From Chloroflexota bacterium (lineage in GTDB: Bacteria > Chloroflexota > Anaerolineae > JAAYZQ01), in NCBI GenBank assembly GCA_018606645.1, contig JAGVRI010000008.1:68036-132035 (forward strand): 64,000 nt of DNA. The letters run 5' to 3'. The position numbers and the translations under genes were made by a program. Positions 25,426-45,883 of the stretch are shown in pieces (the first letter of the stretch is position 1; each line of letters starts with the position of its first letter). Below the pieces are notes generated by a model. It searched no databases, was not told where the DNA came from, and worked only from the letters and a program-made list of their open reading frames with translations.

Positions 25426-25433
25426 CGGATTCG

Positions 25434-26318: not shown

Positions 26319-26325
26319 CTGTGGC

Positions 26326-26392: not shown

Positions 26393-26457
26393 ATGTGAGC
26401 ATCTATTGGCTTGACATCAGGGAGGCGCAGGCGCGAATTCACTAGGCAGCGCAACGT

Positions 26458-27414: not shown

Positions 27415-28088
27415 GGGACGAGACGAAAGCGTTGATGAGTGAAGAACACAGACGTCTGGTGGTCTATGGCGCCGGCGGCCATGCCAAAGTGGTGCTGGCG
27501 ACGATCGAGGCCGAGGGAAAGTACCAGGTGGTCGGTGTGCTCGATTACAATCCGGCCAGGCATGGTCAACAGGTCTATGGCTATCCGGTGCTGGGGGGCT
27601 GGGAACAGCTCGAAACGCTGCAAAGTCAGAACGTCTATGCGGCGTTTGTGGCGATTGGCGATAACGAGCATCGGGCCCAAGTGGCTCGGCGATTGATTGA
27701 GCATGGATTCGAGTTGGTCACGGCGATCCACCCATCAGTTGTCCGCCTGCGGGGTTCGTGCATCGGTCCGGGGACGCTGGTCGCACCGTATGCATTCGTC
27801 GGGGGCGATTGCACCATCGGCGATGGGGTTATCATCAACACGGGCGCGGTGGTGGGGCACGATAGCAGGGTCGGTTCCTGGGTACACATCGGCGCGGGTG
27901 TGATTTTGGCCGGACAAGCCCGGGTCGGGGACTATTCGTTCCTGGGCATCAGCGCGTCTGTGTTGCCCGGAGTGACGGTGGGTCGGCGGGTCATAGTCGG
28001 GGCCCATGCCGTGGTCACCGAAGACCTTCCGGACGATGTCACCGCGGTCGGGGTGCGGGCGCGGATCATCAAACAGAGGTCGCCTTGA
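27411..28088 (+). CDS. second PglD/NeuD-family sugar N-acetyltransferase (tandem paralog)
   Basis: LVVYGAGGHAKVVLATIEAEGKYQVVGVLD.N plus hexapeptide repeats; ATGA overlap with previous gene if start is 27411. Confidence 0.7.
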   Translation: MRDETKALMSEEHRRLVVYGAGGHAKVVLATIEAEGKYQVVGVLDYNPARHGQQVYGYPVLGGWEQLETLQSQNVYAAFVAIGDNEHRAQVARRLIEHGFELVTAIHPSVVRLRGSCIGPGTLVAPYAFVGGDCTIGDGVIINTGAVVGHDSRVGSWVHIGAGVILAGQARVGDYSFLGISASVLPGVTVGRRVIVGAHAVVTEDLPDDVTAVGVRARIIKQRSP

Positions 28089-29350: not shown

Positions 29351-31225
29351 ATGCTGGCTCTGCGCAACCGACACTTTTTTGTTATCGATCTGATCCTGCT
29401 ACCCGTCACTGCCGTGTTGGCCTTTGCGATACGGCTTGACGCCCGGGGGATGGAAAGGTATCTGTCGGCCATGGCGCTTTTTGTTGCTCTGGCCGTGCCG
29501 ATCAAGCTGATTATCTTCCGCTGGTTAGGGCTCTATCGGCGGTTCTGGCGCTTTGCCAGCGTGGATGAGCTGCTGCTGATTGCCATGGCGGTGGGCATGA
29601 GCCTGGTGATCATTTTGGCGCTCATCCTGGGGGTGATCGTGCCCTTTCAGTGGATCAAAGGCTTCCCCCGCTCTGTCCCGTTGATCGACGCCTTGCTGAC
29701 CTTCGGCGTGGTGGGCGGGCCGCGCTTTGCGGTGCGACTGGCCGAGAAGAGACATCAACAGGAAAGGCGTCGGAAATGGAAGGGGCCGGAAAAACGGGTG
29801 CTAGTCATGGGGGCCGGCAGCGCGGGGACGACCGTTGTCAAGGAGCTGCAGGCCAACCCTCACCTGGGATTGGTGCCCTTTGGATTTGTAGACGATGACC
29901 AGCAGAAGCACGGGGTCCAGATCCTGGGTCTGCCGGTCCTGGGGGGGAGGGAGCGCATCCCGGATTTGGCGCGGCGCTATCGTATCGATGAAGTGATCAT
30001 TGCCATGCCGGCCGCGCCGGGCGCGGTGGTGCGCGAGATCGTCAAGATCTGCCAGCAGGCCGGTGTTCAGGTTCGCACCGTTCCCGGTTTGTCCGAGATC
30101 CTCTCTGGTCGGGTCAGCATCAGTCAGGTGCGGAAGGTGGATGTCGAGGACCTGCTGCGTCGGGAGCCGGTACAAACCGATACTCTGGCGTCGGAGCGGA
30201 TGTTGCGCGACTGCCGGGTGTTGGTGACCGGGGCGGGAGGATCGATCGGAAGTGAACTATGCCGACAGATTGCTCGCTACCGCCCTGCCCTTCTCATCCT
30301 GGCCGGACATGGCGAGAATAGCATCTTTGCTATTGCGAATGAACTTCAGCGGCAGTGGCCCGAGTTCCCCATCCGCCGGGCCATTGTGGATATCCGCGAC
30401 TTCGACCGGCTAAGTCAAATCTATGAGACGTATCGGCCTCAAACAGTCTTTCATGCCGCAGCCCATAAACATGTCCCGTTAATGGAAGAGAATATCGCCG
30501 AGGCGATCACCAATAATGTGCAAGGAACAGCCAATCTCCTGCATCTGTCCGAACTCTATGGCGTGGAACGCTTTGTCCTCATCTCTACCGACAAGGCGGT
30601 GAACCCTTCCAGCGTCATGGGGGCAACGAAATGGCTGGCTGAACGGCTGGTCCAGGCGTCAGCGCGGCGGACCGGTTCCGCGTACGTCTCGGTGCGTTTT
30701 GGCAATGTGCTGGAAAGCCGGGGGAGTGTGGTGCTCCTCTTTCGGGAACAGATCGCCCGCGGAGGGCCGGTGACAGTAACTCATCCGGATGTGTGCCGCT
30801 ACTTTATGACTATACCTGAGGCGGTACAACTGGTCTTGCAGGCCGCGGCCCTGGGTCAGGGCGGCGAGGTCTTTGTCCTGGATATGGGGGAACCGATCCG
30901 GATTGCCGATCTGGCCCGGGACATGATCCACCTTTCCGGGTTGGAGGTGGGCCGGGATATCGAGATCGTGTATACCGGGCTGAGGCCGGGCGAAAAGCTG
31001 ATGGAGGAGCTGGTTGCACCGGGTGAACAGGTGGTGCCGACCTGTCACGACAAGATATTGTCCCTCAATGGGACCGGGGATTGGGGCACTGCGGAACTGG
31101 AGCAGGCGGTGCAGGGACTGATCCACCTGGCTCGCCACGGGGACGAAGGTCAAATCCGCGCTAAACTCCGGGAGCTGGTGCCGCATTACAAGCCCTGTCC
31201 CTCTGGGCCGGGAGGCCGGATGTGA
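29351..31225 (+). CDS. membrane-anchored UDP-GlcNAc 4,6-dehydratase (PglF/CapD/WbpM family)
   Basis: four N-terminal TM helices, then VLVMGAGSAGTTVVKEL and VLVTGAGGSIGSEL Rossmann motifs, 624 aa as for PglF/WbpM. Confidence 0.8.
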   Translation: MLALRNRHFFVIDLILLPVTAVLAFAIRLDARGMERYLSAMALFVALAVPIKLIIFRWLGLYRRFWRFASVDELLLIAMAVGMSLVIILALILGVIVPFQWIKGFPRSVPLIDALLTFGVVGGPRFAVRLAEKRHQQERRRKWKGPEKRVLVMGAGSAGTTVVKELQANPHLGLVPFGFVDDDQQKHGVQILGLPVLGGRERIPDLARRYRIDEVIIAMPAAPGAVVREIVKICQQAGVQVRTVPGLSEILSGRVSISQVRKVDVEDLLRREPVQTDTLASERMLRDCRVLVTGAGGSIGSELCRQIARYRPALLILAGHGENSIFAIANELQRQWPEFPIRRAIVDIRDFDRLSQIYETYRPQTVFHAAAHKHVPLMEENIAEAITNNVQGTANLLHLSELYGVERFVLISTDKAVNPSSVMGATKWLAERLVQASARRTGSAYVSVRFGNVLESRGSVVLLFREQIARGGPVTVTHPDVCRYFMTIPEAVQLVLQAAALGQGGEVFVLDMGEPIRIADLARDMIHLSGLEVGRDIEIVYTGLRPGEKLMEELVAPGEQVVPTCHDKILSLNGTGDWGTAELEQAVQGLIHLARHGDEGQIRAKLRELVPHYKPCPSGPGGRM

Positions 31226-32445
31226 ACCCACAGAATCCAGAAGGGTTGGAATTGCTGGCGCGGTTATTGGCCGGCAATTCGCCGGGCGTGGAGATCGATT
31301 GGCAGGGGGTGCTTACGCTCGCTCGACGCCACGCGGTCCTGCCCCTTCTATACTGGGAGATCACCCGGCGCCAGGCCGCCGGCCTCTGGGACTTCTCGGT
31401 CCCCGGTGAGCTCTATGAGAAATTGCGCCGCGATTTTCTGGCAGCGGCGGCCCGGGCGATGGTGGCGGAGCGGCAATTGGCCCAGGTGCTCCAGGCGCTG
31501 GCCGAGGCCGGCGTGTCGACGCTGGTGGTCAAGGGCGCAGCAATGGGAGCCTACTATCCGGATCCGGCGCTGCGGAGCTACGGCGATCTCGATGTGGTGG
31601 TGCCCCACCATCAATTGGAGCAGGCAGCAACAGCGCTGTCCAGGATCGGCTATCGAGGTTCGGATCAGAAACAGTGGCGTCTGGCCCATCATTTTCATCT
31701 TTCGCCGTTGCATAGTGAGGATGGCCGACTGACCGTTGAGATCCACTGGCAGCTTGCCCGACCGAATCAACCATGGACCCTACCGATGGAGGAGCTATGG
31801 GCGCGGGCCATCCCCTGGTCGGTGGCCGGGCAACCCACGTTGCGCCTGGACGCGGTGGATACCGTGTTGTACCTGAGCCTTCATACCCTGATCCACCATC
31901 TGGCGCGGTTGGGATTGCGCCCACTATGCGATCTGAGACAGGTAATAAAGGACTGGGGGCCGCTTGAGTGGCAGGCCCTGGTCAGGCGGGCGGTGGAGTA
32001 TCGCTTGGCGCGGGCGGTGTATCTGATGTTGAGGCTGGCGGAGCAGATTTTGCAGGTCACGGTGCCGGCGCAGGTCAAAGAGGGCCTCGGTCCAGGCCTG
32101 GAGGAGCCCTCGTTGACGGAGTGGATCGCCGGCTTTCTGGCCTCGGACTCGCCATCGGCGCCGCACATGCCAGCCAGCGCCGTCCAGGCCTGGGCGCACG
32201 GGGCGGGGTCTAAGAAGTTCCGGTATTTGTGGCGGCGTCTGTATCCGCCGCGAGAGGAGATGGCATCCATTTATGGCATACCGCCGGATTCGCCCCGCAT
32301 CTGGTGGGCCTATCTGCAGCGTCCGTTTGATCTCCTCCGACGCTATCGCTCGGCCCTGGTACACATGGTCCGAAAGGACCCGAAGGCCATCGCCGTGTGG
32401 AAGCAGGAAACCTGGTTGAGGAAGTGGTTAGGGGAAGTGGCGTGA
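31222..32445 (+). CDS. uncharacterized nucleotidyltransferase-family protein (NTP_transf_5-like)
   Basis: YGDLDVVVPHHQLEQAATAL..GY motif and size typical of the 'uncharacterised nucleotidyltransferase' family; tentative. Confidence 0.4.
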   Translation: MNPQNPEGLELLARLLAGNSPGVEIDWQGVLTLARRHAVLPLLYWEITRRQAAGLWDFSVPGELYEKLRRDFLAAAARAMVAERQLAQVLQALAEAGVSTLVVKGAAMGAYYPDPALRSYGDLDVVVPHHQLEQAATALSRIGYRGSDQKQWRLAHHFHLSPLHSEDGRLTVEIHWQLARPNQPWTLPMEELWARAIPWSVAGQPTLRLDAVDTVLYLSLHTLIHHLARLGLRPLCDLRQVIKDWGPLEWQALVRRAVEYRLARAVYLMLRLAEQILQVTVPAQVKEGLGPGLEEPSLTEWIAGFLASDSPSAPHMPASAVQAWAHGAGSKKFRYLWRRLYPPREEMASIYGIPPDSPRIWWAYLQRPFDLLRRYRSALVHMVRKDPKAIAVWKQETWLRKWLGEVA

Positions 32446-32465: not shown

Positions 32466-32493
32466 TTGTCCTTTCGCGGGAATATGGTATAAT
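32466..32493 (+). promoter_or_regulatory. candidate sigma70-type promoter TTGTCC -16- TATAAT upstream of the wzc-like gene
   Basis: hexamers read directly; places the likely start at ATG 32550 rather than 32508. Confidence 0.4.
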
Positions 32494-32549
32494 CTTCCCG
32501 GGTCAGGTTGGCAGCGGCGGGTCGTCATATCCAAACGGAGAACGGATCA

Positions 32550-34253
32550 ATGGAACTTGTACAGTATTGGCACTTGGTGCGCAAATGGTTGTGGCTCATC
32601 GTCCTGGGGAGCGTTCTAGCTGGTGGTATGGCGTTTGTCGTCAGTCGAAACATGACGCCGGTCTATCAGGCCAACACGACTCTGCTGATCACGCCGGGCG
32701 GGGCGCAGGGGCTGGATAACTACACGAATCTCATGGCCAGCGAACGACTGGCCCGGACCTATGCACAATTGGTGGTCAGCCCCTCTATCCTGCAGCAGAC
32801 GTATCAGCGGGTAGCAGAAATCTGGGGCGCAGACGCAACTAACCGAAGACCACTCTCTGGCTTTTCGGTTTCCGCCGAACCGGTCCGGGACACCCAGCTC
32901 TTGCGCATCGCCGTCACCGGCACCGATCCGGAACTGATCGCCGTGGCAGCCAACACGGCGGCTCAGGTGTTCATCGAATGGCAGACCACGATCCGCAAGT
33001 CGCGGTATGCCGACGCCCAGGACAAGCTCACGGCCGAGATGCATCAGGTGGAGGCCAACATCCAGGAACTCGAAGCCCAGATCCAGGCGCTTGAGGCGGA
33101 AGAGAGTGAGGATAATGCGGAAACAGTGGCTCGCTTGCGGGAGGAACTGACCCGCTATCGCAGCAGTTACTCGGCCTTGCTGAACAGCTACTCCAGCCTC
33201 ACCCTGTCGGAAGCCAGTTCGGGGGATACGGTCACGGTCGTGTCGGAGGCGGTGCGACCGGCAGCGCCGATCCGTCCCCAGGTGATGCGGAACACGATAC
33301 TGGCGGCCATTGTCGGCGCCATGTTGGCCATCGGCGTGGCCTACCTGGTTGAGTACCTGGATGATACGGTCAAAACCCCTGATGACCTTCGGGTGGCCGA
33401 TCTGAATGTCGTCGCTGCGGTGCAGGAGATGCATCTCAATAGCAAAGGACCTGGCCGGGAACCGTTTGTCCTAAAGGAGCCGAAATCGCTCGTGGCCGAA
33501 GCGTATCGCACCCTCCGCACCAACCTGCAGTTCTCGTCCCTGGATCGTCCCTTGCGCAGCCTGGTGGTGACCAGCGCCGTAGCCACGGAGGGGAAAACGA
33601 CGACGGCTGCCAACTTGGCGGTGGTGCTGGCTCAGGCGGGCAAGCGGGTAGTGCTGGTGGACGCTGACCTGCGCCGTCCCTCTGCCCACAAGTTATTTGG
33701 CCTGTCCAATCGCGATGGACTGACCACGGCCCTGGTGCAGGACCCAGGCCAGTTGGATGGCTATCTGCAGGACACCCCAGTGGAGAACCTGCGGGTGTTG
33801 ACCTCGGGGCCGGTTCCGCCCAACCCCCAGGAACTGTTGGGGTCGCAGCGCATGGAGGAGCTGCTCCGCCAGCTCGAGCAGGCTTCTGACATTGTGCTGG
33901 TGGATACTCCACCCTCTCTGGTGGTTGCTGATGCCAACGTCTTGGCCGCTCGCACCGACGGGGTCTTGCTGGTGGTCAATGCCGGAACGACCCGCCGGGC
34001 GGCTATTCAGCAGGCGGTCGCCAGCCTGCGGCAGATCGGGGCCCACGTGGTGGGCGCTGTGCTCAACCGGGTGAATGTCCGGGGCGGCCGCGGGTACTAT
34101 TACTACTATTCCTACTACTCCCACTACTATCGTGACGAAGAGAAAGATGGCAGGCGCAATCTGATCGCTCGCCTGCGGCGTCGGAGGCCGCGTTCCACTC
34201 GCAGCGAATCGACCGAGGGTGTGCCGTCTGAGAGTCGGGAAAAGGAGGAGTAG
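32550..34253 (+). CDS. wzc: polysaccharide co-polymerase fused to BY-kinase (Wzc/PCP-2 family tyrosine autokinase)
   Basis: two TM segments around a coiled-coil periplasmic domain, Walker A VTSAVATEGKTTTAANLA, and C-terminal tyrosine cluster GGRGYYYYYSYYSHYY. Confidence 0.8.
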   Translation: MELVQYWHLVRKWLWLIVLGSVLAGGMAFVVSRNMTPVYQANTTLLITPGGAQGLDNYTNLMASERLARTYAQLVVSPSILQQTYQRVAEIWGADATNRRPLSGFSVSAEPVRDTQLLRIAVTGTDPELIAVAANTAAQVFIEWQTTIRKSRYADAQDKLTAEMHQVEANIQELEAQIQALEAEESEDNAETVARLREELTRYRSSYSALLNSYSSLTLSEASSGDTVTVVSEAVRPAAPIRPQVMRNTILAAIVGAMLAIGVAYLVEYLDDTVKTPDDLRVADLNVVAAVQEMHLNSKGPGREPFVLKEPKSLVAEAYRTLRTNLQFSSLDRPLRSLVVTSAVATEGKTTTAANLAVVLAQAGKRVVLVDADLRRPSAHKLFGLSNRDGLTTALVQDPGQLDGYLQDTPVENLRVLTSGPVPPNPQELLGSQRMEELLRQLEQASDIVLVDTPPSLVVADANVLAARTDGVLLVVNAGTTRRAAIQQAVASLRQIGAHVVGAVLNRVNVRGGRGYYYYYSYYSHYYRDEEKDGRRNLIARLRRRRPRSTRSESTEGVPSESREKEE

Positions 34254-34254
34254 C

Positions 34255-36750
34255 ATGGGCGAGGGGCATCCTCAATCCAGCCCCCGACTGCGAGCGGTTT
34301 TTCTTGTTCTTCTTCCCGTTTTGGTACTCGTCATTGGATTGTTACAAGTTCAGCGGGCTGCTGCGGCCGACCCGAACTGTCCGGTTCCTCTGACCGAGCG
34401 GCAACGATATGGATTTGTGGCGACGTCCGCCAACTGGCCACAGCAGTTCGACTATGCGTCTCTCAATGCCGGCTGGGTGGTGGACTTTGCCTATCGGACC
34501 TACAGTGGGCCCCCGCCCGGTCTCGATCGGGCGTTGGTCATCCGCATCCACGAGGGCTATCGGGTGGACCCGGCACGGTTGGGCCCGGTGGTGGATAGCA
34601 ACCCGGGCGTCATCTGGCTGATCGGCAACGAGCCGGACTGTGTCTGGCAGGACAACGTCCGGCCCGAGGAGTACGCCCGCATCTACCATGACCTCTATGC
34701 TTTTATCAAGAGCCGGGATGCAAGCGGCCAGGTGGCAGCCGGGGGCATTGTCCAGCCGACACCCCTGCGCCTGGAGTACCTGAACCGGGTCCTGGCCGCC
34801 TACCAGGCCCGCTACCGGCAGGCGATGCCGGTAGATGTATGGAACATCCACAATGCCATACTCAACGAGGTGAGTTGTGACTATGATCCCGGCAACTGTT
34901 GGGGGGCGGGGATTCCGCCGGGCATTGACGCTCCATTTGGCGAGGTCCGGTTGATCGACGACAATGACAATATGACCCTGTTCCGCAATCAGATCTGGGC
35001 CTTCCGCCAGTGGATGGCCGACCATGGCTATGGCAGCTACCCGCTGATCGTCACCGAATATGGGGTCCTGATGCCGGCGAGTTATGGCTTTGGTCCGAGC
35101 CGGGTGAACACCTTTATGAACAACACTTTTGCCTTTTTCCAGAACACGACCCATCCCAGCCTGGGCGATCCGACGGACGGTTGGCGGCTGGTGCAGCGCT
35201 GGGCTTGGTTCAGTCTGGATGTGCCGCCCTGGAATCCGATGACAGGGGGCTTTAACGGCAACCTCTTTGATCCGGATACGACCTCGAAAACGGTCTATGG
35301 ACTGAACTATAGCAACCAGACGGGCGCGTTTCCTCCGGTGGAATATGCAGATCTGGCGCTGGGCGCCTGGCGGGTGGGGCCCACGGTGGATCTGGCCGGC
35401 CCTGGCCAGCCCATCACCTGGACGGTTCAGATTCGGATCGTGAACCTGGGGACGGCCGATGCGGGAGGGTTTACCGTTCGTCTGACGTACACCGGCCCGG
35501 TGAGCGGTGTGCTGGAACAGACGATGTCCGGCCTGGCTCACTCTTCGGCGGCGTGGCGTACGTTTGTCCTGTCTGACCTGCCAATGGGCCGCTATGACCT
35601 CTCCCTGGAGATCGACGCCGCCGCTCAGGTGAACGAATCGCGGGAGTGCAACAACCAGGCGATGATGACGCTCATCGCGCCGCAGTTCCGCTATCAGCTT
35701 CCACTGGTCCCGAACCTGCGGACGGGGGCGTCGGTGCAAGGCGTCGCTTCCTCGGCGCCCGTTCGGGAGTCGGGGGTTCCATCTAAAACGACAGAGGCTG
35801 CCTCGGTGGAGCCCGGCTTTCGGGAGTTCCCGGTGCCGACTGCGGCCAGCTACCCCGGGCAGATCGCCATCGACGGCCAGGGCCGGGTATGGATCACGGA
35901 GCGGGATGCCAATCAGATCGCCCGCTTTGATCCCCAGAGCGAGACCTGGGTGGAATACCCCATCCCCACCGCCAACAGTCAGCCGTGGGGACTGGCTGCC
36001 GATGGGCAGGGCAACATCTGGTTCGCCGAGACGGCAGCAAATCAGATCGCCCGGCTGGTGGAAGCCAGCGGCGCGGTCACCGAATATCCGGTTCCCACGC
36101 CCAACAGTCAGCCGTGGGAGGTGGCCGTCAGTGGGAACGTGGTCTGGTTCACGGAAAAGGCGGGGAACCGGATCGGCAACCTGGTACCGGGCACGGGAGC
36201 CGTCACCGAATATCTGGTTCCGACCGCGAACGCCGAACCCCGCGGACTGGCGGTTTCGGGCAATGAGGTATGGTTTGTCGAGGGCGCGGCGAACAAGCTG
36301 GGCCGGTACAATATCAGTACCGGGCAATTCTTCGAGGTGGCCAGGCCAGCCGGCAGTCTCCCCCAGGACATTGTGTTAAATCCAGTCGGCCAACCCTGGT
36401 TCACCGAAGCGGGCGGGAATCGGATAGTCAAGTTCGAGCCGTCTACCGTTGGGTGGTGGATCGTCATCAACGCGGTGACGCCCAACAGCGAACCGTACGG
36501 CATCGCCATGGAAGGCAGCAAGGCGGTGTGGTTCACGGAACGTGCCGCGAATCGACTGGCGCGCTATGATGCTGCTCGCAACCGCATCTTTGAGTATGTG
36601 CTCCCCACGCCCAACAGCGCCCCGACCGGGGTGGTGGTGGACGGCAATGGTTGCGCCTGGTACGCTGCCCCCGGGGCCAATCGCATTGCTCGCCTGTGCC
36701 CCCCGCCGAACCGCTTCACCTATATCCCGGTGATCTACAAACGCTGGTAG
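34255..36750 (+). CDS. secreted multidomain protein: GH-clan-A-like (TIM-barrel glycoside hydrolase-like) domain + CARDB domain + seven Vgb-type beta-propeller repeats
   Basis: strong SD AAGGAGG 6 nt upstream of ATG 34255; signal peptide; IWLIGNEPD and LIVTEYG motifs about 135 residues apart (clan GH-A acid/base and nucleophile pattern); CARDB-like ...ESRECNN...; seven repeats of EYP.PT.NS.P.G.A....G.WF.E...N.I.R. Confidence 0.6.
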   Translation: MGEGHPQSSPRLRAVFLVLLPVLVLVIGLLQVQRAAAADPNCPVPLTERQRYGFVATSANWPQQFDYASLNAGWVVDFAYRTYSGPPPGLDRALVIRIHEGYRVDPARLGPVVDSNPGVIWLIGNEPDCVWQDNVRPEEYARIYHDLYAFIKSRDASGQVAAGGIVQPTPLRLEYLNRVLAAYQARYRQAMPVDVWNIHNAILNEVSCDYDPGNCWGAGIPPGIDAPFGEVRLIDDNDNMTLFRNQIWAFRQWMADHGYGSYPLIVTEYGVLMPASYGFGPSRVNTFMNNTFAFFQNTTHPSLGDPTDGWRLVQRWAWFSLDVPPWNPMTGGFNGNLFDPDTTSKTVYGLNYSNQTGAFPPVEYADLALGAWRVGPTVDLAGPGQPITWTVQIRIVNLGTADAGGFTVRLTYTGPVSGVLEQTMSGLAHSSAAWRTFVLSDLPMGRYDLSLEIDAAAQVNESRECNNQAMMTLIAPQFRYQLPLVPNLRTGASVQGVASSAPVRESGVPSKTTEAASVEPGFREFPVPTAASYPGQIAIDGQGRVWITERDANQIARFDPQSETWVEYPIPTANSQPWGLAADGQGNIWFAETAANQIARLVEASGAVTEYPVPTPNSQPWEVAVSGNVVWFTEKAGNRIGNLVPGTGAVTEYLVPTANAEPRGLAVSGNEVWFVEGAANKLGRYNISTGQFFEVARPAGSLPQDIVLNPVGQPWFTEAGGNRIVKFEPSTVGWWIVINAVTPNSEPYGIAMEGSKAVWFTERAANRLARYDAARNRIFEYVLPTPNSAPTGVVVDGNGCAWYAAPGANRIARLCPPPNRFTYIPVIYKRW

Positions 36751-36758
36751 AGCCTGGT

Positions 36759-38111
36759 GTGAGTCCTCAGACCCCTCGTCCGATCGAGCGCAAGAGCGCT
36801 CCCCCTTGGCTGGTCTGGCTGGAGATCGGAATGGTCTCCTTGGCCGCCCCGTTTTTGCTCTTCCCGACCTTCCAACGGCGTGGGACGGTCACCGCTCTGG
36901 CTGCCCTAATCCTGGTCTGGATGTTCCGATGGTTGGTCACCGGCCGGCCCGGCGCCCCGACTCCTTTGGATGTCTCGCTGCTGGTGTTGAGCCTGACGAT
37001 TCCCATTGCCGTCTGGGCCTCGGCCTTGCCAGAAGTGACCCTTCCCAAACTGACCGGCCTGATCCTGGGGCTGGCCGTCTTGCGGCTGACCACTGCCGCC
37101 GTGCGCACGCGGCGCGGTCTGACAGGTGCGACGGCTGCCTTTCTGGTCGTTGGTCTGGGGGTGGCGATATTCGGGGCGCTGGCTACGGCATGGCCAGACA
37201 AGTGGCGGGCGGTGGAATTCTTGCTGAATGCTCTCCCGCAATGGTTGCAAGGCCTGCCGGGTGCTGAAGCGGGCATCAACCCCAACGAGTTGGCCGGCGC
37301 GTTGATCATGGTGATACCGGTGTCATTGGCAATGCTTGTGGCGCCGACGGCCGGACATCCATGGCGCGGTTGGGCGGTGCGCCTCCTGGGATTGTTCCTT
37401 TCGCTGTTCCTGGGTGTCTTGCTTTTCCTCACTCAATCGCGCAGTGCCTGGATTGGCCTGGCCGTGGGGTTGGCGACGATGATCGGCCTCCGCTGGCGCT
37501 GGGCGCGCATTCTGCTTGCGGGTGCACTCGCGGCGGTGGTCCTCATCCTGTGGCGGCTGGGACCTGAATCGGTTATGCAAAGGCTCTTTCAGGTGGTGAA
37601 TCAGAGCGAAATCGGGGGACTGGTCGGCACAGTCAGCCTTGAGGGACGGATGGAGATATGGAACCGGGCGCTATATGCCATCCAGGACTTTCCGTTCACC
37701 GGCACGGGGTTGGGGACCTTTCGCCAGGTGGTACGAGTGCTATATCCTCTGTTTCTGATCGGTCCGGATTTTGACATCGGCCATGCCCACAATGTGTTCC
37801 TGCAAGTGGCGCTGGACCTGGGGCTGCCGGGGCTGATCGCCTATCTGGCGCTGGTAGGGACGGCCGGATGGTTCTGCTGGCGGGCCGCGCAGTCTGCAAG
37901 GAGCCCGGACCGATGGCTGGCCGTTGGCGTACTGGGTTCTCTGGCCGCGTTCCACACCTACGGAATGACCGATGCCATTGCTCTGGGCGCCAAGCCGGGC
38001 GTGGTCTTTTGGTTGCTGGTGGCCCTGGCCGTGCTTCTGGGGACGATCGGCCAGAGAGCAGAAACGGATTCACACGAAACCATGACATCGGCTGAGGCAG
38101 CAGACGGATGA
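36759..38111 (+). CDS. O-antigen ligase/polymerase-family membrane protein (Wzy_C domain)
   Basis: polytopic; LFLTQSRSAWIGLAVGLATM block typical of the Wzy_C/O-antigen ligase domain; start approximate (GTG 36759 or downstream ATG). Confidence 0.6.
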   Translation: MSPQTPRPIERKSAPPWLVWLEIGMVSLAAPFLLFPTFQRRGTVTALAALILVWMFRWLVTGRPGAPTPLDVSLLVLSLTIPIAVWASALPEVTLPKLTGLILGLAVLRLTTAAVRTRRGLTGATAAFLVVGLGVAIFGALATAWPDKWRAVEFLLNALPQWLQGLPGAEAGINPNELAGALIMVIPVSLAMLVAPTAGHPWRGWAVRLLGLFLSLFLGVLLFLTQSRSAWIGLAVGLATMIGLRWRWARILLAGALAAVVLILWRLGPESVMQRLFQVVNQSEIGGLVGTVSLEGRMEIWNRALYAIQDFPFTGTGLGTFRQVVRVLYPLFLIGPDFDIGHAHNVFLQVALDLGLPGLIAYLALVGTAGWFCWRAAQSARSPDRWLAVGVLGSLAAFHTYGMTDAIALGAKPGVVFWLLVALAVLLGTIGQRAETDSHETMTSAEAADG

Positions 38112-40453
38112 TCGACGGGTGGGGCGTTTTCAGCCAGGCACTGTGGATTATCGGCCTGGCGGTCAATCTGGCGGTAATCAGCACGGCGAACTATCAGGCC
38201 CAGGTGGAGCGGGTTCGCTTGCGACAGAAACTGGGCGAAGCTGGGTTCCAGCTTGGGATCAACCTGGGCATGGTTCTGTTTTGCGTGGGACTGCTTCTTG
38301 CCGGACGTTCCTGGTGGGAGAAGGCGCTGTGGGGCCTGGTGGGCGTGTCATTTTTGGCCCAGTTGCTCTGGGTCGGGCGCGTAAGGTTCTTGGCCTCCTC
38401 ACGCGCCGTACTTCGAGAGGAAGCGTCCCAACCCGAACCTTCAGCCGAAACCGCGAAACCGCGCTCAGGGGGACCGCGCCGCTGGCTGGGCATGGTATTC
38501 CTGGTGGCAGGGGTGTTGATCCTGCTGGGCTGGCTGGTGGTGACCAGTGTCCAGGTGTTTCAGCATACCCTCTCGCTCCGTGCCCATCTCCAATCGTTGG
38601 AAAGGGTCGCGCGGGGCAACATCAGCCGGTTAGGGCCGGCTGAATGGAAAGAGGCTGGAGGCCATCTGACCGGGATGCGCCAGGACCTGGAGGCCTTGGA
38701 TGCTCAGCTAGGGCCTTTTCTGCCGCTGGGACGTTTCCTGGGCTGGGTACCGACCTATGGAGGGGACCTGGCGGCAGCTCCTGATCTCCTGGACTTGGCG
38801 GTGGCGATGGTCAGCGCCGGGGACCGGACATTCCGTGCTCTGGCGCCGGCTCTGGACCTTCTTGCTGGCGAGGAATCCGGTACGGACGCCGGGGCAGCAA
38901 TAACCGAGCGCTTGCTTTCGATATTGGAGACGGCGCAACCGGAGTTGCAGGCGGCGCAGCAAGAGCTGGCGATGGCCCAGGAACTGCGGTCCCGTCTTGA
39001 CCGGAACCGGTTGTCCCCCCAAGTGGCTGGATTGCTCGATCGGTTGGATCGCTATGGGCCATGGTTCGAGACGGCCGTGCAGGGGGCAAGCCTGGCCCCG
39101 GGCCTGTTGGGGGCGGAAGAAGCACGAACCTATCTCATCCTGGCCCAAAACAACCAGGAATTACGGGCTACTGGCGGCTTTATCAGCGGGGTGGGTGAAC
39201 TCAGAATTCGGAAAGGGCGTTTGGAATCGTTGACGTTCAGCGATAGTTACGCGGTGGACAACCTGGCGGTGCCCCATGATCTGACTCCGGTTGATTTTCA
39301 GCGGACTCTGTTCGGACAGTTGTGGTTTTTCCGGGACACGAACTGGGATCCGGATTTTCGCACTTCGGCCCGGCGCGCCCTGGAAGTCTATGCCCGGGAC
39401 CGGGGGGTGCGGGCTGATGGCGTCATCGCTCTGGATCTGACCGCCCTCCAACGCCTGGTGAAGGCGGTGGGTCCGCTCCAGGTGGAAGGCATTGCCGAAC
39501 CGGTGACCGGTCAGAATCTGCTCCAGGTGCTCCGCCAGGAATGGGGCCGGTCGTCGGCCGAAGAGGGGCAAGAATGGCGTGAGTGGTGGCTGCATCGCAA
39601 AGATTTTATGGGTCCTATCGCTCGGGCGCTGATGGAAAGGCTCACAACAGGTCGAGGCTTGCAAGCAGCAGCCTTGATCCCAGCCTTGATCCAGATTCTG
39701 GAGGAGAAACATCTGCTGATCTATATGGCTGATCCTGAGGTGGCCGAGTTGCTGCGCGCCAGAAACTGGGATGGAGCGTTGGTAGCCCCGCCTGCATCGG
39801 ATGCCTTGTTGGTGGTAGATACGAATGTCGGTTTCAACAAAGTGGATGTCAACATTGAGCGCTCGATTCATTACCAGGTGGATTTGACGACTCCAGAGAA
39901 CCCCCGGGCGCAACTGGTTCTGACCTACCAGAACCAAAGCCGCCGCGTGGCGGAGGCGTGTATCCAGGAAGCGCGGTATGGCCGTACCTACGCCGACATG
40001 ACCGAGCGCTGCTACTGGGACTATGTTCGAGTGTATGTGCCCGCGGGTAGTCAGCTTGTATCGGGACCGCCACCCGCCCTGCCGGCCGGCAGCCTGTTGG
40101 CTCGCAGCGGCGAGGCCTACCCTCAGCCGCCGATCAGTCCGACGCTCCAGGCTGACGATTGGGAGGTATGGACGGTGTTCTTTGCCCTGGAGCCGCTGGG
40201 GCAGCAGACGTGGACGTTTGTGTATGACTTGCCGCCTGATGTGTTGGATTATAGTCCCGATGGGTCGGTTCGCTACCGACTTTGGGTTTTCAAACAACCC
40301 GGCACGGGAGCCGCGCCGCTTGAGGTAGAGCTCGTGCTGCCAGCGAATAGCAAAGTGGTGAGTGCATCGCCCAAGGATCTGCCTGTGATCTCCACCGATT
40401 TGAAGGTGGACCGCACGTTCGAGCTTCTGTTTCGAAGGGAGACCCGTCCATGA
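38108..40453 (+). CDS. large membrane-anchored extracytoplasmic protein, uncharacterized (possibly DUF4012 family)
   Basis: N-terminal TM helices then about 600 soluble residues; motif LILAQNNQELRATGGFISGVGE recalled as DUF4012-like but not verifiable here; ATGA overlap with upstream ligase gene. Confidence 0.45.
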   Translation: MIDGWGVFSQALWIIGLAVNLAVISTANYQAQVERVRLRQKLGEAGFQLGINLGMVLFCVGLLLAGRSWWEKALWGLVGVSFLAQLLWVGRVRFLASSRAVLREEASQPEPSAETAKPRSGGPRRWLGMVFLVAGVLILLGWLVVTSVQVFQHTLSLRAHLQSLERVARGNISRLGPAEWKEAGGHLTGMRQDLEALDAQLGPFLPLGRFLGWVPTYGGDLAAAPDLLDLAVAMVSAGDRTFRALAPALDLLAGEESGTDAGAAITERLLSILETAQPELQAAQQELAMAQELRSRLDRNRLSPQVAGLLDRLDRYGPWFETAVQGASLAPGLLGAEEARTYLILAQNNQELRATGGFISGVGELRIRKGRLESLTFSDSYAVDNLAVPHDLTPVDFQRTLFGQLWFFRDTNWDPDFRTSARRALEVYARDRGVRADGVIALDLTALQRLVKAVGPLQVEGIAEPVTGQNLLQVLRQEWGRSSAEEGQEWREWWLHRKDFMGPIARALMERLTTGRGLQAAALIPALIQILEEKHLLIYMADPEVAELLRARNWDGALVAPPASDALLVVDTNVGFNKVDVNIERSIHYQVDLTTPENPRAQLVLTYQNQSRRVAEACIQEARYGRTYADMTERCYWDYVRVYVPAGSQLVSGPPPALPAGSLLARSGEAYPQPPISPTLQADDWEVWTVFFALEPLGQQTWTFVYDLPPDVLDYSPDGSVRYRLWVFKQPGTGAAPLEVELVLPANSKVVSASPKDLPVISTDLKVDRTFELLFRRETRP

Positions 40454-41082
40454 AGCGGAGAGATGACCGATGGACCTGGATCGTGGCCCTGGCCGGGATG
40501 CTGATCATCCGGTTACTCGCCGGGGGTGGGGGAAGCGATCTGACCGTCCAGGCTGACCGTCCGAACCAGACGATCCCGACTCCAACCACGCCGGCTCCCC
40601 CGGTTGCCTCACCGACGCCCAAAGCTACATTCACCTCTGTGCCCACGGAACCGCCGGTCACGCCTCGGCCGGCGACCGAAACAGCACCGGCACTTGATAC
40701 TCTTACGCCGACGGCGATGCCGGTTTCGCCGTCACCCACCGCCACTGCCCCGGTCCCCGGCACCCCATCTCCATCGGTGACTGTTCCCGGACCGACGGAG
40801 ACACCGACTGCCACCTCTGAACCAGAACAGAAACCCGTTTCGGTCAGTCCCACTTCCCCGATACCACCATCGGCCCCGGCATTAAGCGTCACCCCAGAAC
40901 TGGCGCAACCCACTCCGGTTGCCTCCAGGGAGGTCGCGCCGACTCCGGAGGCCACTGCACCGACGCCTCCTGCTGCGGAGGCTCGATCCGGATGGTGGTC
41001 CTGGCCGTACCTGTGGATCGCCGTGGGTTTGATCTTGATCGGCGCCGGATTGGTCATGCTGGTGCGACGGCGAAGCTCATGA
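40450..41082 (+). CDS. Pro/Thr/Ser-rich low-complexity protein with N- and C-terminal TM segments
   Basis: PTPTTPAPPVASPTPKATFTSVPTEPPVTPRP... linker flanked by hydrophobic segments; ATGA overlaps on both sides. Confidence 0.45.
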   Translation: MKRRDDRWTWIVALAGMLIIRLLAGGGGSDLTVQADRPNQTIPTPTTPAPPVASPTPKATFTSVPTEPPVTPRPATETAPALDTLTPTAMPVSPSPTATAPVPGTPSPSVTVPGPTETPTATSEPEQKPVSVSPTSPIPPSAPALSVTPELAQPTPVASREVAPTPEATAPTPPAAEARSGWWSWPYLWIAVGLILIGAGLVMLVRRRSS

Positions 41083-42395
41083 CCATTGGTTCGCCCTCCC
41101 GTCGATCGGCGATGCTGGCGTTAACGCTGGTGATCGTGGGGGCGGTTCTGATCGGATGGAGTCTGGTCCGCCTGTGGCCCCACGTCGTTCCTCAATCCGG
41201 CCCGGCAGTCACCGTGTCGCCCACCGTTCCACCTGCGACGGCTACCGAGCCGATCCTGCCTCCTGCCCCCACGGGGCTGTCCCTCGCTACTCAGGAGCGG
41301 CCCATCCACGCCACCCCCTCCCCTCGCTTCCAGACTGCGTCCCCGACGGCAACCGCTGTGGTAGGAGCCGGGCTCTCCCCGACACCGTCGGTGGGTCCGG
41401 GGCCGGTCACGCTGGCGCCATCCTCCAGCTTTACTCCGTCCTCTGTGCCTTCGGCGACGCCAGTACCAGTGTCAAAGGGGCTGTATTCCTTGCGACAGCG
41501 ATTGGGCGTTGGCGCCTCGAGTCGGCGCGTGACACAGGAGGTCGCCCGCGAACTGGAGTTCGGTTGGTACCTGGACTGGACGGCTCGGGCCGACGCGTTT
41601 CGGTCGCCTGAGGTGGAATATCTGCCCATGATCCGGATCAAGAACGGCCAGCCGCATCTGAAGGGGGACGCCCTGCGCCAGGCGGTGAAGGCTCTGCCTG
41701 GAGCGGTATGGCTGATTGGCAATGAACCGGATGTCAAATGGCAGGATAACGTCCCGCCAGAGGTGTATGCCCAGGTCTATCATGATCTGTACGACCAGCT
41801 CAAAGTCCTCGATCCCGCCTGTCAGGTGGCCATCGGCGGCGTGTCGCAGCCAACCCCTCTGCGGATGCGGTACCTGAACCTGATTCTGGAGGCGTACCAG
41901 AGCCAGTACGGCGAGCCCATGCCGGTGGACGTGTGGAACGTGCACAACTTTATCTTGCGTGAAGAACGGGATAGTTGGGGGGTGGACATTCCCCCGGGCC
42001 TGACCGAGCAGACTGGCATCCTGTATGAAATCACCGATCACGATGACCTGACCATCTTCCGTCAGCAGATCGTCGAGTTTCGGAAGTGGATGCGGGACCG
42101 AGGCCAGCAAGATAAACCCCTTATCGTCAGTGAGTACGGGATTCTCATGCCCAATGAGTATGGATTTCCCGCGCGCCGAGTCGAGCAGTTTATGGTGGAC
42201 ACCTTTGAGTTCTTTCGCACAGCGGTCGATCCCGCGTTGGGTTATGCCGCCGACGGGTATCGACTGGTGCAACGTTGGTGCTGGTTCAGTCTGGCCGATC
42301 CCCGCTATCCAACCGGCAACCTCGTCCAACTGGAGAGTGGACAACTGACCCCCCTCGGCAAAGCATTTCGATCCTACGCTGAGTCCCCCCACTAA
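41079..42395 (+). CDS. membrane-anchored GH-clan-A-like protein, paralog of the N-terminal domain of 34255..36750
   Basis: AVWLIGNEPDVKWQDNVPPEVYAQVYHDLYDQLK..QVAIGGVSQPTPLRMRYLN..MPVDVWNVHNFIL..KPLIVSEYGILMP aligns block-for-block with the 34255 protein; N-terminal TM + P/S/T linker. Confidence 0.6.
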   Translation: MTIGSPSRRSAMLALTLVIVGAVLIGWSLVRLWPHVVPQSGPAVTVSPTVPPATATEPILPPAPTGLSLATQERPIHATPSPRFQTASPTATAVVGAGLSPTPSVGPGPVTLAPSSSFTPSSVPSATPVPVSKGLYSLRQRLGVGASSRRVTQEVARELEFGWYLDWTARADAFRSPEVEYLPMIRIKNGQPHLKGDALRQAVKALPGAVWLIGNEPDVKWQDNVPPEVYAQVYHDLYDQLKVLDPACQVAIGGVSQPTPLRMRYLNLILEAYQSQYGEPMPVDVWNVHNFILREERDSWGVDIPPGLTEQTGILYEITDHDDLTIFRQQIVEFRKWMRDRGQQDKPLIVSEYGILMPNEYGFPARRVEQFMVDTFEFFRTAVDPALGYAADGYRLVQRWCWFSLADPRYPTGNLVQLESGQLTPLGKAFRSYAESPH

Positions 42396-45841: not shown

Positions 45842-45883
45842 GAGGAGTCGTGGTAGATTCTCTTGCCTCTTGAGCCAGGGATA

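Follow-up and report, generated by a model that had tools for sequence, protein, structure and literature searches.

A surface-polysaccharide gene cluster ends in five chained same-strand genes, g1 to g5 (34255-42395), in the 64,000-nucleotide stretch of DNA that we analyzed as a whole (the window; Table 1). We give about an even chance to the reading that this cassette performs the late, extracytoplasmic steps of a Wzx/Wzy-type pathway in a monoderm bacterium of the Anaerolineae type, with transfer by a Wzy_C and a DUF4012 protein and with two clan GH-A glycanases. Such a reading would provide DUF4012, a large family of unknown function, with a first testable role, and what is new here is the cassette synteny, the Wzy_C::DUF4012 fusions, the proposed transferase partnership of DUF4012, and the separate Wzy candidate.

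Table 1. Positions and assignments of the cassette genes and of selected upstream genes in the window.
Feature	Coordinates	Strand	Length (aa)	Basis of assignment
Wzx flippase	9047..10354	+		Pfam Polysacc_synt and Polysacc_synt_3; 12 predicted hydrophobic segments
Wzy candidate, multi-TM	14148..15704	+		At least 8 predicted hydrophobic helices; context
NTP_transf_5 gene	31222..32445	+		PF14907, 3e-52
Wzc-like PCP / tyrosine autokinase	32508..34253	+		Pfam Wzz, GNVR, P-loop ATPase
g1, secreted GH-like protein	34255..36750	+	831	Signal peptide, clan GH-A PF11790-like hydrolase domain, CARDB, 7-bladed Vgb-lyase-family beta-propeller
g2, polytopic Wzy_C-family membrane protein (O-antigen-ligase-like, GT-C-type)	36759..38111	+	450	PF04932
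g3, DUF4012 protein	38108..40453	+	781	Pfam PF13196
g4, Pro/Thr/Ser-rich (~42%) protein	40450..41082	+	210	Composition and alignment with L083, L081, and L001
g5, membrane-tethered putative hydrolase	41079..42395	+	438	Clan GH-A PF11790

Layout and recurrence of the cassette

Tight chaining of the five genes behind a Wzc-like gene, as described in the first-pass annotation, is borne out at each junction. The wzc stop (34253) and the g1 ATG (34255) are separated by 1 nt, and the g1 TAG (36748-36750) and the GTG start of g2 (36759) by 8 nt, while ATGA overlaps join g2 to g3 (38108-38111), g3 to g4 (40450-40453), and g4 to g5 (41079-41082). From its GTG, g2 equals in length the called gene of the 78%-identical relative L083; an alternative ATG at 36831 has GGAG ahead of it, and a longer ORF for g5 begins at 40992. 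Promoter-like hexamers on the + strand, whose count is at chance level, are found only before wzc (32466-32493) and after g5, and the transcription unit probably includes the Wzc gene, likely as its first gene. The C-terminus of Wzc bears a YYYYYSYYSHYY cluster, and the NTP_transf_5 gene lies directly upstream of wzc also in L001, L081, and L083.

The full cassette is syntenic in relatives, with identities of 78% (L083), 56% (L081/L082), and 49% (L086), and in L001 (52%) the Wzy_C gene has moved and a PMT_2 gene lies within the cassette. Here, the gene-neighborhood search that had been proposed at the first pass found the cassette genes linked to one another as well as to Wzc and sugar-biosynthesis genes, with wzc kept beside them in four relatives (L001, L081, L083, and L086). 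Recurrence of the gene set in independent assemblies indicates that the arrangement is more than chance; it is a modular one that recurs in Anaerolineae and is not confined to the source genome. The association of the module with Wzc is not universal, as DUF4012-GH pairs occur away from Wzc loci in L085 and L088, and L087 has neither GH nor Wzc.

The g2-g3 pair as a putative transferase

As a Wzy_C protein (83 bits against a threshold of 31.7), g2 has at least nine predicted hydrophobic helices, and its sole relative in the PDB is WaaL (7tpg; profile E 2e-18), with which it aligns at QSR, GRLEIW, and HAHN. The invariant R228, R297, and H342/H344 agree in spacing with R215, R288, and H338 of WaaL (residue roles: PMC3643930). 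Within the cassette, g2 diverges fastest (36% identity versus 56-67% for its neighbors), as would be expected of a serotype-specific polymerase. Wzy_C domains are found in true polymerases too, and the role of g2 is ambiguous, with a ligase more likely than a polymerase because a separate Wzy candidate lies upstream. This candidate (ORF 14148-15704), which has no match in Pfam or NCBIfam, is encoded beside Wzx and GT genes, where the cluster is variable and low in GC. Two loci without a Wzy_C gene, a Geobacter Wza/Wzc/Wzx/Wzi locus and a FnlABC locus, have homologs flanked by Wzx and GT genes, and on context ORF 14148-15704 is the strongest candidate for Wzy, the polymerase of the repeat units.

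We also considered that g2 might itself be Wzy, with g3 as the sole, LCP-like transferase from lipid carrier to peptidoglycan, the fusions described below as polymerase-ligase chimeras, and the GH proteins acting in trimming or release. This we regard as possible but rather doubtful. Many Wzy polymerases do belong to the Wzy_C family, and g2 behaves like serotype-specific genes both in outpacing its neighbors and in shifting position in L001, yet ORF 14148 is better placed, and its homologs fill the Wzy slot in loci without Wzy_C. Of the L087 genes in view, only the Wzy_C gene, which comes straight after those for sugar biosynthesis, is an obvious polymerase candidate. A polymerase would hand its product to the LCP-like partner with no need for two ligases, and the LCP-fold evidence for g3 would apply equally, whereas a g2 ligase and an LCP-like g3 could be redundant as two transferases. 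Against a polymerase stand the Arg-Arg-His set of WaaL and PglL in g2, its only solved relative being a ligase, and the usual DUF4012 partner in Chloroflexota, a TMEM260-like GT-C enzyme that belongs to no polymerase family.

Fusions of Wzy_C to DUF4012 occur in several relatives as chains of 1,200-1,300 aa, with at least nine among the 120 homologs listed, and are present in L005 and L018 as well; L072 and L087 have the two as neighboring genes. In most Chloroflexota, the partner of DUF4012 is a TMEM260-like GT-C enzyme rather than Wzy_C, its gene adjoining DUF4012 in 54 of 80 loci. Polytopic lipid-linked-sugar transferases of either kind are encoded within 10 kb of DUF4012 in 63 of the 80 loci, the other 17 being mostly short contigs.

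The 781-aa g3 was initially described as uncharacterized, which is correct in that DUF4012 has no assigned function, but the protein is no orphan, as it belongs (112 bits against a threshold of 28) to a large catalogued family with ~14,500 cluster representatives. DUF4012 has been noted before in Bifidobacterium EPS loci (PMC5412050, PMC6744442) and is enriched in Gram-positives, Chloroflexi, and CPR (PMC6744442). In the EPS locus of Bifidobacterium longum 105-A, the DUF4012 gene BL105A_0406 lies between a priming transferase and wzz (PMC5412050), and thus shares with g3 the Pfam family and the type of locus, though it is known by annotation alone. Neither paper reports a Wzy_C fusion, a GT-C partnership, or an LCP-like fold for DUF4012.

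In g3, N-terminal TM helices are followed by a helical bundle (~124-333), an alpha/beta domain with an LCP fold (~340-565), and a beta-sandwich (~565-777). By structure prediction, as had been suggested for g3, the ectodomain, predicted to lie outside the membrane, was modeled with a pLDDT of 92.6 and a pTM of 0.92, and the model shares the fold of LCP enzymes, which couple polyprenyl-PP-linked polymers to the wall. Foldseek independently returned the LCP family, and the LCP identity of 10 of the 11 fold matches was verified by sequence (exception, 4obm). The relationship is at the fold level only: none of 68 DUF4012 family members matched PF03816 (LCP), an LCP HMM search did not recover DUF4012, and hhalign of DUF4012 with LCP gave a colinear but non-significant match (P ~0.02-0.03). 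A canonical LCP ORF was found neither within 10 kb of any DUF4012 locus nor in the window. The beta-sandwich is OST1-like in the model, with M1 aminopeptidase N-domains scoring nearly equal, and its likeness is generic.

Among known systems, the closest mechanistic precedent for g2 and g3 is in pneumococcus, a monoderm in which TacL (Wzy_C family) and LCP enzymes share one Und-PP-linked polymer (PMC5727136). There, the genes are unlinked, and the proteins act in parallel on different acceptors, whereas the translational coupling or fusion of g2 and g3 points to one complex; the polymer, moreover, is a teichoic acid in pneumococcus and would be a Wzx/Wzy-type heteropolysaccharide in the pathway of the cassette. 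The conserved 5′ genes of Wzy-dependent capsule loci in Streptococcus pneumoniae, cpsA-D, include the LCP enzyme Cps2A together with CpsC/CpsD. Unlike these, the present cluster has PCP and kinase in a single protein and no CpsB-like phosphatase that we could see, and its g3 lacks detectable sequence similarity to PF03816, carries an additional long helical bundle and beta-sandwich, and has a Wzy_C enzyme as its coupled or fused partner. The two glycanases and the Pro/Thr-rich stalk are extra.

The g4 stalk and candidate acceptors

With no Pfam family and a single sub-threshold match (LAVTG), g4 begins with a signal-like segment that contains an AxA site, includes a conserved NQTIPTPTP, and ends in SPxLW, a TM helix, and a tail rich in Arg. 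Of the double-TM, Pro/Thr-rich protein first proposed, the composition and the C-terminal TM hold, but the N-terminal "TM" resembles a signal peptide whose AxA is conserved. From these features, mature g4 would be a type-I, C-terminally anchored Pro/Thr-rich stalk. Homologs directly follow DUF4012 in L083, L081, L086, L087, and L001, as do similar Pro/Thr-rich ORFs in 12 of 68 distant loci, a count that depends on an arbitrary composition threshold.

Such a neighbor raises the alternative of protein O-glycosylation, which we consider unlikely. Here, g2 would be a PglL/PilO-type O-oligosaccharyltransferase (a TMEM260/PMT-like enzyme elsewhere in Chloroflexota) and DUF4012 an accessory subunit that holds the lipid-linked donor in its LCP-like domain and presents the substrate on its OST1-like beta-sandwich, while the g4 stalk and the Pro/Thr-rich linker of g5 would become the acceptors of a protein-anchored glycan coat. 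Acceptor genes typically adjoin O-OTase genes (PMC3643930), which agrees with the position of g4 in the five relatives, though the distant loci with such an ORF are a minority. Human TMEM260, a protein O-mannosyltransferase, is in the same family as the commonest DUF4012 neighbor (PMC10214176), and the L001 cassette holds PMT_2. PglL, PilO, and PglS (PMC3643930, PMC12800693) likewise share with g2 the Wzy_C domain and Arg/Arg/His set, and with the cassette an adjacent gene for a candidate acceptor rich in Pro/Thr/Ser/Ala, but the cited examples are Gram-negative with pilin-like acceptors and have no known DUF4012 partner. The resemblance of g2 and g3 to STT3 (GT-C) and OST1/ribophorin I of the eukaryotic oligosaccharyltransferase is one of fold only (9-12% identity), and a beta-sandwich this common, matched nearly as high by the M1 N-domains, does not imply common descent or protein substrates for g3. 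Moreover, protein O-glycosylation leaves the linkage of Wzc and two glycanases unexplained.

In the preferred reading of terminal transfer and trimming, for which we infer every biochemical activity, substrate, and acceptor, repeat units would be assembled on a polyprenyl carrier by genes at 7.7-32 kb (from their domain content), flipped by Wzx, and polymerized by the multi-TM ORF 14148-15704 product under the control of Wzc. The core of the cassette would be a two-protein transferase, one chain in some relatives, in which g2 may serve as the GT-C-type enzyme with the WaaL/PglL residue set and g3 may contribute the OST1-like sandwich and the fold by which LCP enzymes hold polyprenyl-pyrophosphate-linked glycans. 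Together, these would receive the polymer on its lipid carrier at the membrane's outer surface and pass it to an envelope acceptor, preferentially peptidoglycan or another wall polymer through the LCP-like domain, secondly the mucin-like membrane stalk g4 and the similar g5 linker, and thirdly a membrane glycolipid. Secreted g1 and tethered g5 would cleave that polymer to adjust its length, release it, or turn it over. The first-pass suggestion of an attachment, trimming, or release machine for the upstream glycan is strengthened by the linkage, fusions, LCP fold, and GH-A glutamates, all of which fit, while its tie to Wzc does not hold throughout.

Paralogous putative hydrolases g1 and g5

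The GH-like domains of g1 and g5 are, as originally proposed, homologous, being true paralogs with 47% identity over 289 aa (E 2e-82) and with the shared motif blocks present. Against Glyco_hydro_cc (PF11790; threshold 21 bits), g5 scores 34.9 bits and g1 slightly below threshold at 20.8, and both catalytic glutamates of clan GH-A are retained in each domain, with the NEP and EYG motifs invariant across 26 homologs. In g5, an N-terminal TM helix and a Pro/Thr/Ser-rich linker of ~110 aa precede the catalytic domain, whereas g1 has one predicted hydrophobic segment, at its N-terminus, and carries CARDB (4e-8) and a Vgb_lyase-type propeller (2e-60). The propeller matches PDB 2qc5 and 2z2n (E 1e-50) but scores far under the NCBIfam Vgb cut-off (147 versus 600), and the architecture of g1 is the same in L001, L081, L083, and L086. 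The structures closest to g5 are GH128 enzymes (E 3e-4 by single sequence), a similarity that is marginal and partial (profile E 2.7e-5 over ~90 residues).

That the five genes form an independent module for envelope remodeling or nutrient scavenging, with glucanases acting on foreign beta-glucans and the EPS cluster merely adjacent, would suit the GH128 beta-1,3-glucanases as closest solved relatives, the DUF4012-GH pairs outside Wzc loci, and a CARDB-propeller decoration frequent among secreted degradative enzymes, but is very improbable given that weak GH128 match, the 1-nt gap to wzc with no +-strand promoter-like site inside the block, the wzc linkage in four independent relatives, and Wzy_C and LCP-like folds that indicate handling of lipid-linked glycans.

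PslG, ExoK, and BcsZ are polymer-specific hydrolases encoded in EPS loci for trimming, release, or quality control. Similar to g1 and g5 in having their gene among biosynthetic genes and a clan GH-A (beta/alpha)8-type core with NEP and nucleophile glutamates, they differ from the present pair, which comprises a secreted and a tethered paralog, both PF11790-like with marginal similarity to GH128, and g1 fused to CARDB and a Vgb-family propeller. Homologs of g5 number more than 2,300, and those with source names given, together with the contigs examined, are from Anaerolineae. GH copies lie near DUF4012 in 20 of 80 loci, nine of which have two copies.

Arrangement and conservation of the cassette

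At 34255-42395 of the window, five genes on the + strand directly follow the wzc gene, and these encode a GH/CARDB/propeller protein (g1), a Wzy_C protein (g2), a 781-aa protein (g3), a 210-aa Pro/Thr-rich protein (g4), and a membrane-tethered GH-like protein (g5). The first-pass annotation had described a translationally coupled cassette here, which was borne out by the starts, stops, and ATGA overlaps. The Wzc stop codon ends at 34253, and g1 opens with an ATG two bases further on, at 34255, and itself ends at 36750. For g2, the most likely start is the GTG at 36759, which gives a 450-aa protein, as in a 78%-identical relative (L083), with the ATG at 36831 (GGAG in front) being the alternative. 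ATGA overlaps join g2 to g3 (38108), g3 to g4 (40450), and g4 to g5 (41079). Pfam assigned CARDB, a Vgb_lyase-family propeller, and a just sub-threshold Glyco_hydro_cc to g1, Wzy_C to g2, DUF4012 to g3, and Glyco_hydro_cc to g5, and matched no family in g4. In a promoter and terminator scan, the + strand showed promoter-like hexamers nowhere but ahead of wzc and ahead of the TetR gene, with their total count at shuffled-sequence level and their positions alone being suggestive. An Rfam search of the window returned no RNA family. Two long minus-strand ORFs within the cassette, a region of 62% GC, were taken as shadow ORFs.

Among loci of other genomes carrying homologs, the closest relatives (L083, L081/L082, L086, and L001; identities below are for g3) retain the full gene set. 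Foremost, L083 (78%) has the order NTP_transf_5, Wzc, GH/CARDB/propeller, Wzy_C, DUF4012, a 216-aa ORF, GH, and TetR. The same order is found in L081/L082 (56%), but with Wzy_C and DUF4012 as a single 1,220-aa protein. These two are likewise fused (1,307 aa) in L086 (49%), whose cassette also holds an additional 541-aa protein with clan GH-A-like motifs (WEFYNEPD and ICTETG) and no Pfam match. In L001 (52%), all five genes are present, with Wzy_C relocated ahead of g1 and a PMT_2-family GT-C gene (30.2 bits vs 26.1) inserted. Such Wzy_C::DUF4012 fusions make up 9 of 120 g3 homologs among the matches listed, and many g5 homologs lie on contigs equal in size to those of g3 homologs. The modular nature of the set is evident from variants at three other loci: in L087, Wzy_C, DUF4012, and a PT-rich ORF occur without GH or Wzc; L088 has GH5 and Wzy_C, then GH_cc and DUF4012; and L085 has DUF4012, GH_cc, LPG_synthase_TM, and GT2. 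A flippase-like LPG_synthase_TM gene recurs beside the DUF4012/GH_cc modules, its neighbor being GT2 in L085 and L086 and of GT1 type in L088. The pairing of LPG_synthase_TM with GT2 is typical of polyprenyl-phosphate-sugar synthesis and flipping, and would supply GT-C enzymes. Directly upstream of wzc, both in the window and in relatives, is a gene for NTP_transf_5 (PF14907, 'uncharacterised nucleotidyltransferase').

Coordinates of features in the window and in loci of other genomes
Feature	Locus	Position	Strand	Remarks
Wzx flippase	window	9047-10354		cluster member
435-aa ORF	window	12798-14105		N-terminal hydrophobic segment; no family
Multi-TM ORF	window	14148-15704		no family
Polbeta-type NTase	window	23465-23869	+	overlaps HepT-like gene 23838-24317
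DUF2283 gene	window	25207-25425	+	
NTase gene	window	25434-25955	+	
23S_rRNA_IVP/bAvd-like gene	window	25928-26308	+	
NTase gene	window	26458-26739	+	
PglD-like gene, first	window	26749-27414	+	
PglD-like gene, second	window	27336-28088	+	
NTP_transf_5 gene	window	31222-32445		
NTP_transf_5 gene	L001	1761-3062		
NTP_transf_5 gene	L081	4378-5514		
NTP_transf_5 gene	L083	1567-2769		
Shadow ORF	window	34342-36327	-	within cassette
Shadow ORF	window	39161-40297	-	within cassette
GT2/WbaP-type transferase genes	window	45863-48264	+	
Hybrid histidine kinase/receiver-GGDEF region	window	48258-53911	-	
PMT_2-family GT-C gene	L001	6141-7499		
541-aa protein	L086	4772-6397		
TMEM260-like gene	L007	8357-9949		example from L007-L080
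TMEM260-like gene	L023	3267-4964		example from L007-L080
LPG_synthase_TM region	L085	4624-6665		
LPG_synthase_TM region	L086	12274-14458		
LPG_synthase_TM region	L088	3797-4777		

The DUF4012 protein and its partner genes

Residues 338-478 of g3 match DUF4012 (PF13196) with 112.2 bits against a cut-off of 28, and all 68 of the aligned homologs match the same family. Our one factual correction to the first-pass annotation is that a named family exists for this protein, with 14,532 representatives (E up to 1e-3, clustered at 50% identity). The full-length AlphaFold model of g3 is confident (pLDDT 87.7, pTM 0.77) and is laid out as membrane helices, a long helical bundle, an alpha/beta domain holding the Pfam core, and a beta-sandwich. 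From the charge distribution, the large domain is predicted to be outside the membrane. A g3 profile search of PDB sequences gave no match. With the full model, Foldseek returned OST1/ribophorin I, the N-domains of M1/M61 aminopeptidases, six Cps2A entries, and further LCP structures, with 10 of the 11 entries in this LCP group being identifiable as LCP proteins by sequence (4obm is the exception). We concluded from the model that g3 has an LCP-type fold. Membership in the LCP (LytR-Cps2A-Psr) family itself was rejected, as there was no significant sequence match by Pfam, LCP HMM, or hhalign. In fact, PF03816 was found in none of 68 DUF4012 members, even at E up to 10, an LCP HMM run on 5,155 ORFs recovered no DUF4012 ORF, and hhalign of two DUF4012 profiles against LCP was colinear and non-significant (P about 0.02-0.03). 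In these low-stringency, non-significant alignments, FRD is paired with PRD, HRKD with an Arg-rich helix, and the beta-alpha unit ALDL..L..LV.A.GP with V.V....F..VVD.LGG. As candidates for a counterpart of the Arg/Asp site that binds pyrophosphate and Mg2+ in LCP enzymes, DUF4012 has invariant R353, D379, R409-D410, D443, and R497-K498.

Neither a TMEM260-like gene nor a canonical LCP gene is present in the window or in its closest relatives, where the partner of DUF4012 is Wzy_C. When the Pfam families of ORFs flanking DUF4012 were surveyed without prior selection in 80 Chloroflexota genomes, TMEM260-like (PF11028) was the upstream neighbor in 26 of 72 loci and the downstream neighbor in 17 of 69 (PMT_2 in 3), with one such neighbor confirmed at 107 bits. 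By an HMM built from the flanking-ORF matches, 58 of the 80 loci have a TMEM260-like gene no more than 10 kb from DUF4012, and in 54 the two are adjacent. Counting TMEM260-like and Wzy_C together, 63 of the 80 loci have one within 10 kb, the rest being mostly on short contigs. From these neighbors, DUF4012 appears to work with polytopic enzymes whose polyprenyl-linked donors are used on the outer side of the membrane. As a separate observation, the gene beside DUF4012 in most Chloroflexota genomes is a TMEM260-like (PF11028, formerly DUF2723) GT-C protein, and GH_cc genes are often located just upstream of this pair. The bacterial TMEM260-like/DUF4012 pairing seems undescribed, and we know of no bacterial TMEM260 member that has been characterized. 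Human TMEM260 is a protein O-mannosyltransferase (PMC10214176).

DUF4012, a large family for which we know of no tested function, occurs in Bifidobacterium EPS loci, Chloroflexi, and CPR bacteria (PMC5412050, PMC6744442). Our literature search found no account of a DUF4012-GT-C partnership, a Wzy_C::DUF4012 fusion, or an LCP-type fold for DUF4012. Here, the LCP-type fold, the natural Wzy_C fusions, and the near-constant GT-C adjacency are three independent and reproducible clues, and with them DUF4012 becomes a candidate, amenable to testing, for the factor still missing from attachment or hand-over.

Possible ligase or polymerase role of g2 in the polysaccharide cluster

The g2 protein belongs to Wzy_C (PF04932; 83 bits vs 31.7) and has at least nine predicted hydrophobic helices. 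As a single sequence it had no match in the PDB, and a profile of ten homologs matched WaaL of Cupriavidus metallidurans (7tpg) alone among solved structures (E 2e-18). In these ten homologs, R228, R297, and H342/H344 are invariant and align with GTRGA, VRLKIW, and HAHN of that WaaL. At intervals of 69 and 45-47 residues, they are spaced much like the functionally important residues of E. coli WaaL (R215/R288/H338) and of PglL (R224/R298/H349) (PMC3643930). While g2 has the Arg-Arg-His set of WaaL and PglL, these residues are not exclusive to ligases, and, going by sequence, they would fit a ligase or O-oligosaccharyltransferase and be compatible with a polymerase as well. A WaaL in the strict sense would transfer O-antigen to lipid A-core; the window showed no lipid A genes, and its relatives belong to the Anaerolineae. 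For a PglL-type O-oligosaccharyltransferase, a candidate PT-rich acceptor (g4) is encoded nearby.

The cassette forms the end of a 27-kb Wzx/Wzy-type polysaccharide cluster, which includes GT4 and GT2 genes, FnlA/B/C-like and PglF/E/D-like sugar-nucleotide genes, a small phosphoglycosyl transferase, the NTP_transf_5 gene, and a Wzc-type PCP/tyrosine kinase. This Wzc shows the features of a PCP-2/BY-kinase, namely Wzz and GNVR domains, two TM helices, a P-loop kinase domain, and a C-terminal Tyr cluster, whose tail reads YYYYYSYYSHYY. Between 8 and 18 kb of the window (8000-18000), GC is 50-54% against about 58-64% in the flanks (about 60% elsewhere), and this segment, which carries Wzx, GT4/GT2 genes, and the family-less 435-aa and multi-TM ORFs, has the look of a variable region of serotype type that is exchanged horizontally. 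Neither ORF matched anything in NCBIfam or Pfam. Of the two, the multi-TM ORF has just 67 homologs, patchy across phyla, and in a Geobacter Wza/Wzc/Wzx/Wzi locus and an FnlABC locus these lie between Wzx and GT genes with no Wzy_C gene within 10 kb. Since its homologs thus take the Wzy slot of Wzy_C-less loci, its product is, by context, the best candidate for the repeat-unit polymerase (Wzy).

An alternative is that g2 is the true polymerase and g3 the sole ligase. Besides having residues that a polymerase could also have, g2 diverges faster than any other gene of the cassette (36% identity to L081 vs 56-67% for its neighbors). Set against this, the polymerase slot beside the Wzx and GT genes is already occupied by the multi-TM ORF, a second Wzy candidate, which, by the same contextual reasoning, would leave g2 free for a different role. 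We consider this alternative rather unlikely, though one to be taken seriously.

Putative glycanases, PT-rich stalk, and proposed polymer hand-over

The claim that the GH-like domains of g1 and g5 are homologous was upheld (47% identity over 289 residues, E 2e-82), and the sequence blocks quoted in its favor are present. Against the Glyco_hydro_cc (PF11790) cut-off of 21, g5 scores above (34.9) and g1 just below (20.8). The nearest solved GH proteins are GH128 (E 3e-4 for a single sequence and 2.7e-5 for a profile) with partial domain coverage, and the best match, 6uaq (E 2.7e-5), extends over no more than about 90 residues at the N-terminal end and 22 at the C-terminal end. Neither N85-E86-P87 nor E222-Y223-G224 varies among 26 homologs, both paralogs included, and we take the glutamates of NEP and EYG to be the acid/base and the nucleophile (strand 7) of clan GH-A. 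With one N-terminal hydrophobic segment, g1 is predicted to be secreted, while g5 would be held at the membrane by its TM helix and by a linker, some 110 residues long, that is rich in Pro, Thr, and Ser. The g1 propeller is related to Vgb lyase (E 1e-50) and scores above the cut-off for PF24684 (204 bits vs 50). As a streptogramin B lyase it was rejected, since NCBIfam Vgb(A) and Vgb(B) gave 147 and 144 bits vs a cut-off of 600. GH copies are found up to 10 kb from DUF4012 in 20 of 80 loci, nine of which have two.

Conservation of g4 lies in its architecture rather than its sequence. Its N-terminus is basic and leads into a hydrophobic segment that closes with a conserved AxA site. The motif (L)NQT(I/V)PTxTP follows, and after it comes a variable stretch of about 130 residues in which Pro, Thr, Ser, and Ala are abundant. 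The C-terminal part is made up of SPxLW, a single TM helix, and a tail rich in Arg. Mature g4 would be a mucin-like stalk with a C-terminal anchor. Among 68 more distant loci, 12 have a g4-like ORF immediately 3' of DUF4012, as counted with an arbitrary composition threshold. We rejected the idea that g4 is a substrate of a sortase or PEP-CTERM system, having found neither a recognizable motif nor a sortase: among sorting-signal models, LAVTG alone was hit, sub-threshold (16.3 vs 27 bits), the conserved motif is SPxLW, and no sortase or exosortase was found among the scanned window proteins.

The anatomy and the comparative evidence are solid, and we infer every biochemical step of the following model. 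A lipid-linked polymer would be produced by Wzx, the candidate Wzy, and Wzc, and then taken over by the g2-g3 pair at the outer face of the membrane for transfer to an envelope acceptor, for which the wall, the PT-rich stalk g4, or a glycolipid are candidates. Afterwards, the g1 and g5 glycanases would trim or release the polymer. Taken as a whole, we give this model about an even chance. Its general logic is known: kinase/co-polymerase, terminal transferase, and dedicated glycanase come together in one Wzy-dependent locus. The closest precedent for g2-g3 is pneumococcal TacL (Wzy_C) and LCP enzymes, which share one Und-PP-linked chain (PMC5727136). In its position, g3 resembles the LCP gene cpsA of Gram-positive capsule loci, and likewise the DUF4012 gene of an EPS locus in Bifidobacterium (PMC5412050). 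Our literature search found no account of the attached PT-rich stalk and the paired glycanases.

We hold a protein O-glycosylation system, in which g4 is the acceptor and DUF4012 an OST1-like accessory subunit, to be improbable. More broadly, DUF4012 could be a dedicated accessory subunit of bacterial GT-C lipid-linked-sugar transferases (Wzy_C ligases in this clade, TMEM260/PMT-like in most Chloroflexota), combining an LCP-derived holder of the polyprenyl-PP-glycan with an OST1-like beta-sandwich that presents the substrate, so that an OST-like complex O-glycosylates mucin-like, PT-rich membrane stalks such as g4. This is a speculative proposal to which we assign a low probability; if true, the surface polysaccharide of these monoderms would be anchored on a dedicated protein, not on lipid or peptidoglycan. 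An unrelated glucan-degrading or envelope module seems very improbable.

Outside Firmicutes, the final attachment, sizing, and release of Wzx/Wzy polysaccharides are, to our knowledge, poorly known, and in Chloroflexota unknown. In practice, this bears on the retention versus release of EPS in probiotic bifidobacteria and on how filamentous Anaerolineae form floc and granule matrix in wastewater systems, as well as on glyco-engineering, if the pair moves whole polymers onto a simple Pro/Thr-rich acceptor.

Several lesser features of the locus were also noted. Inside the polysaccharide cluster, an island of small toxin-antitoxin-like and nucleotidyltransferase genes covers 23465-26739 (+ strand); as there is an overlap between its HepT-like gene and the long phosphoglycosyl transferase ORF, the true start of this transferase is probably later than 24133. 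Two tandem PglD-like hexapeptide acetyltransferase genes with overlapping ORFs come next and are possibly a duplication. Downstream of g5 are the TetR gene and then unrelated metabolism genes. Past the TetR, epimerase, and acyl-CoA dehydrogenase genes, there is a GT2 gene with a second, large WbaP-type phosphoglycosyl transferase (CoA_binding_3 and Bac_transf). With the small one of the cluster, this makes two priming transferases at the locus, and so there may be a second glycan pathway. Some 6 kb further downstream there is a hybrid histidine kinase of 1,578 aa (four GAF, one PAS, HisKA/HATPase, and two receivers), followed by a receiver-GGDEF protein, and through these the polysaccharide genes could be under the control of c-di-GMP.
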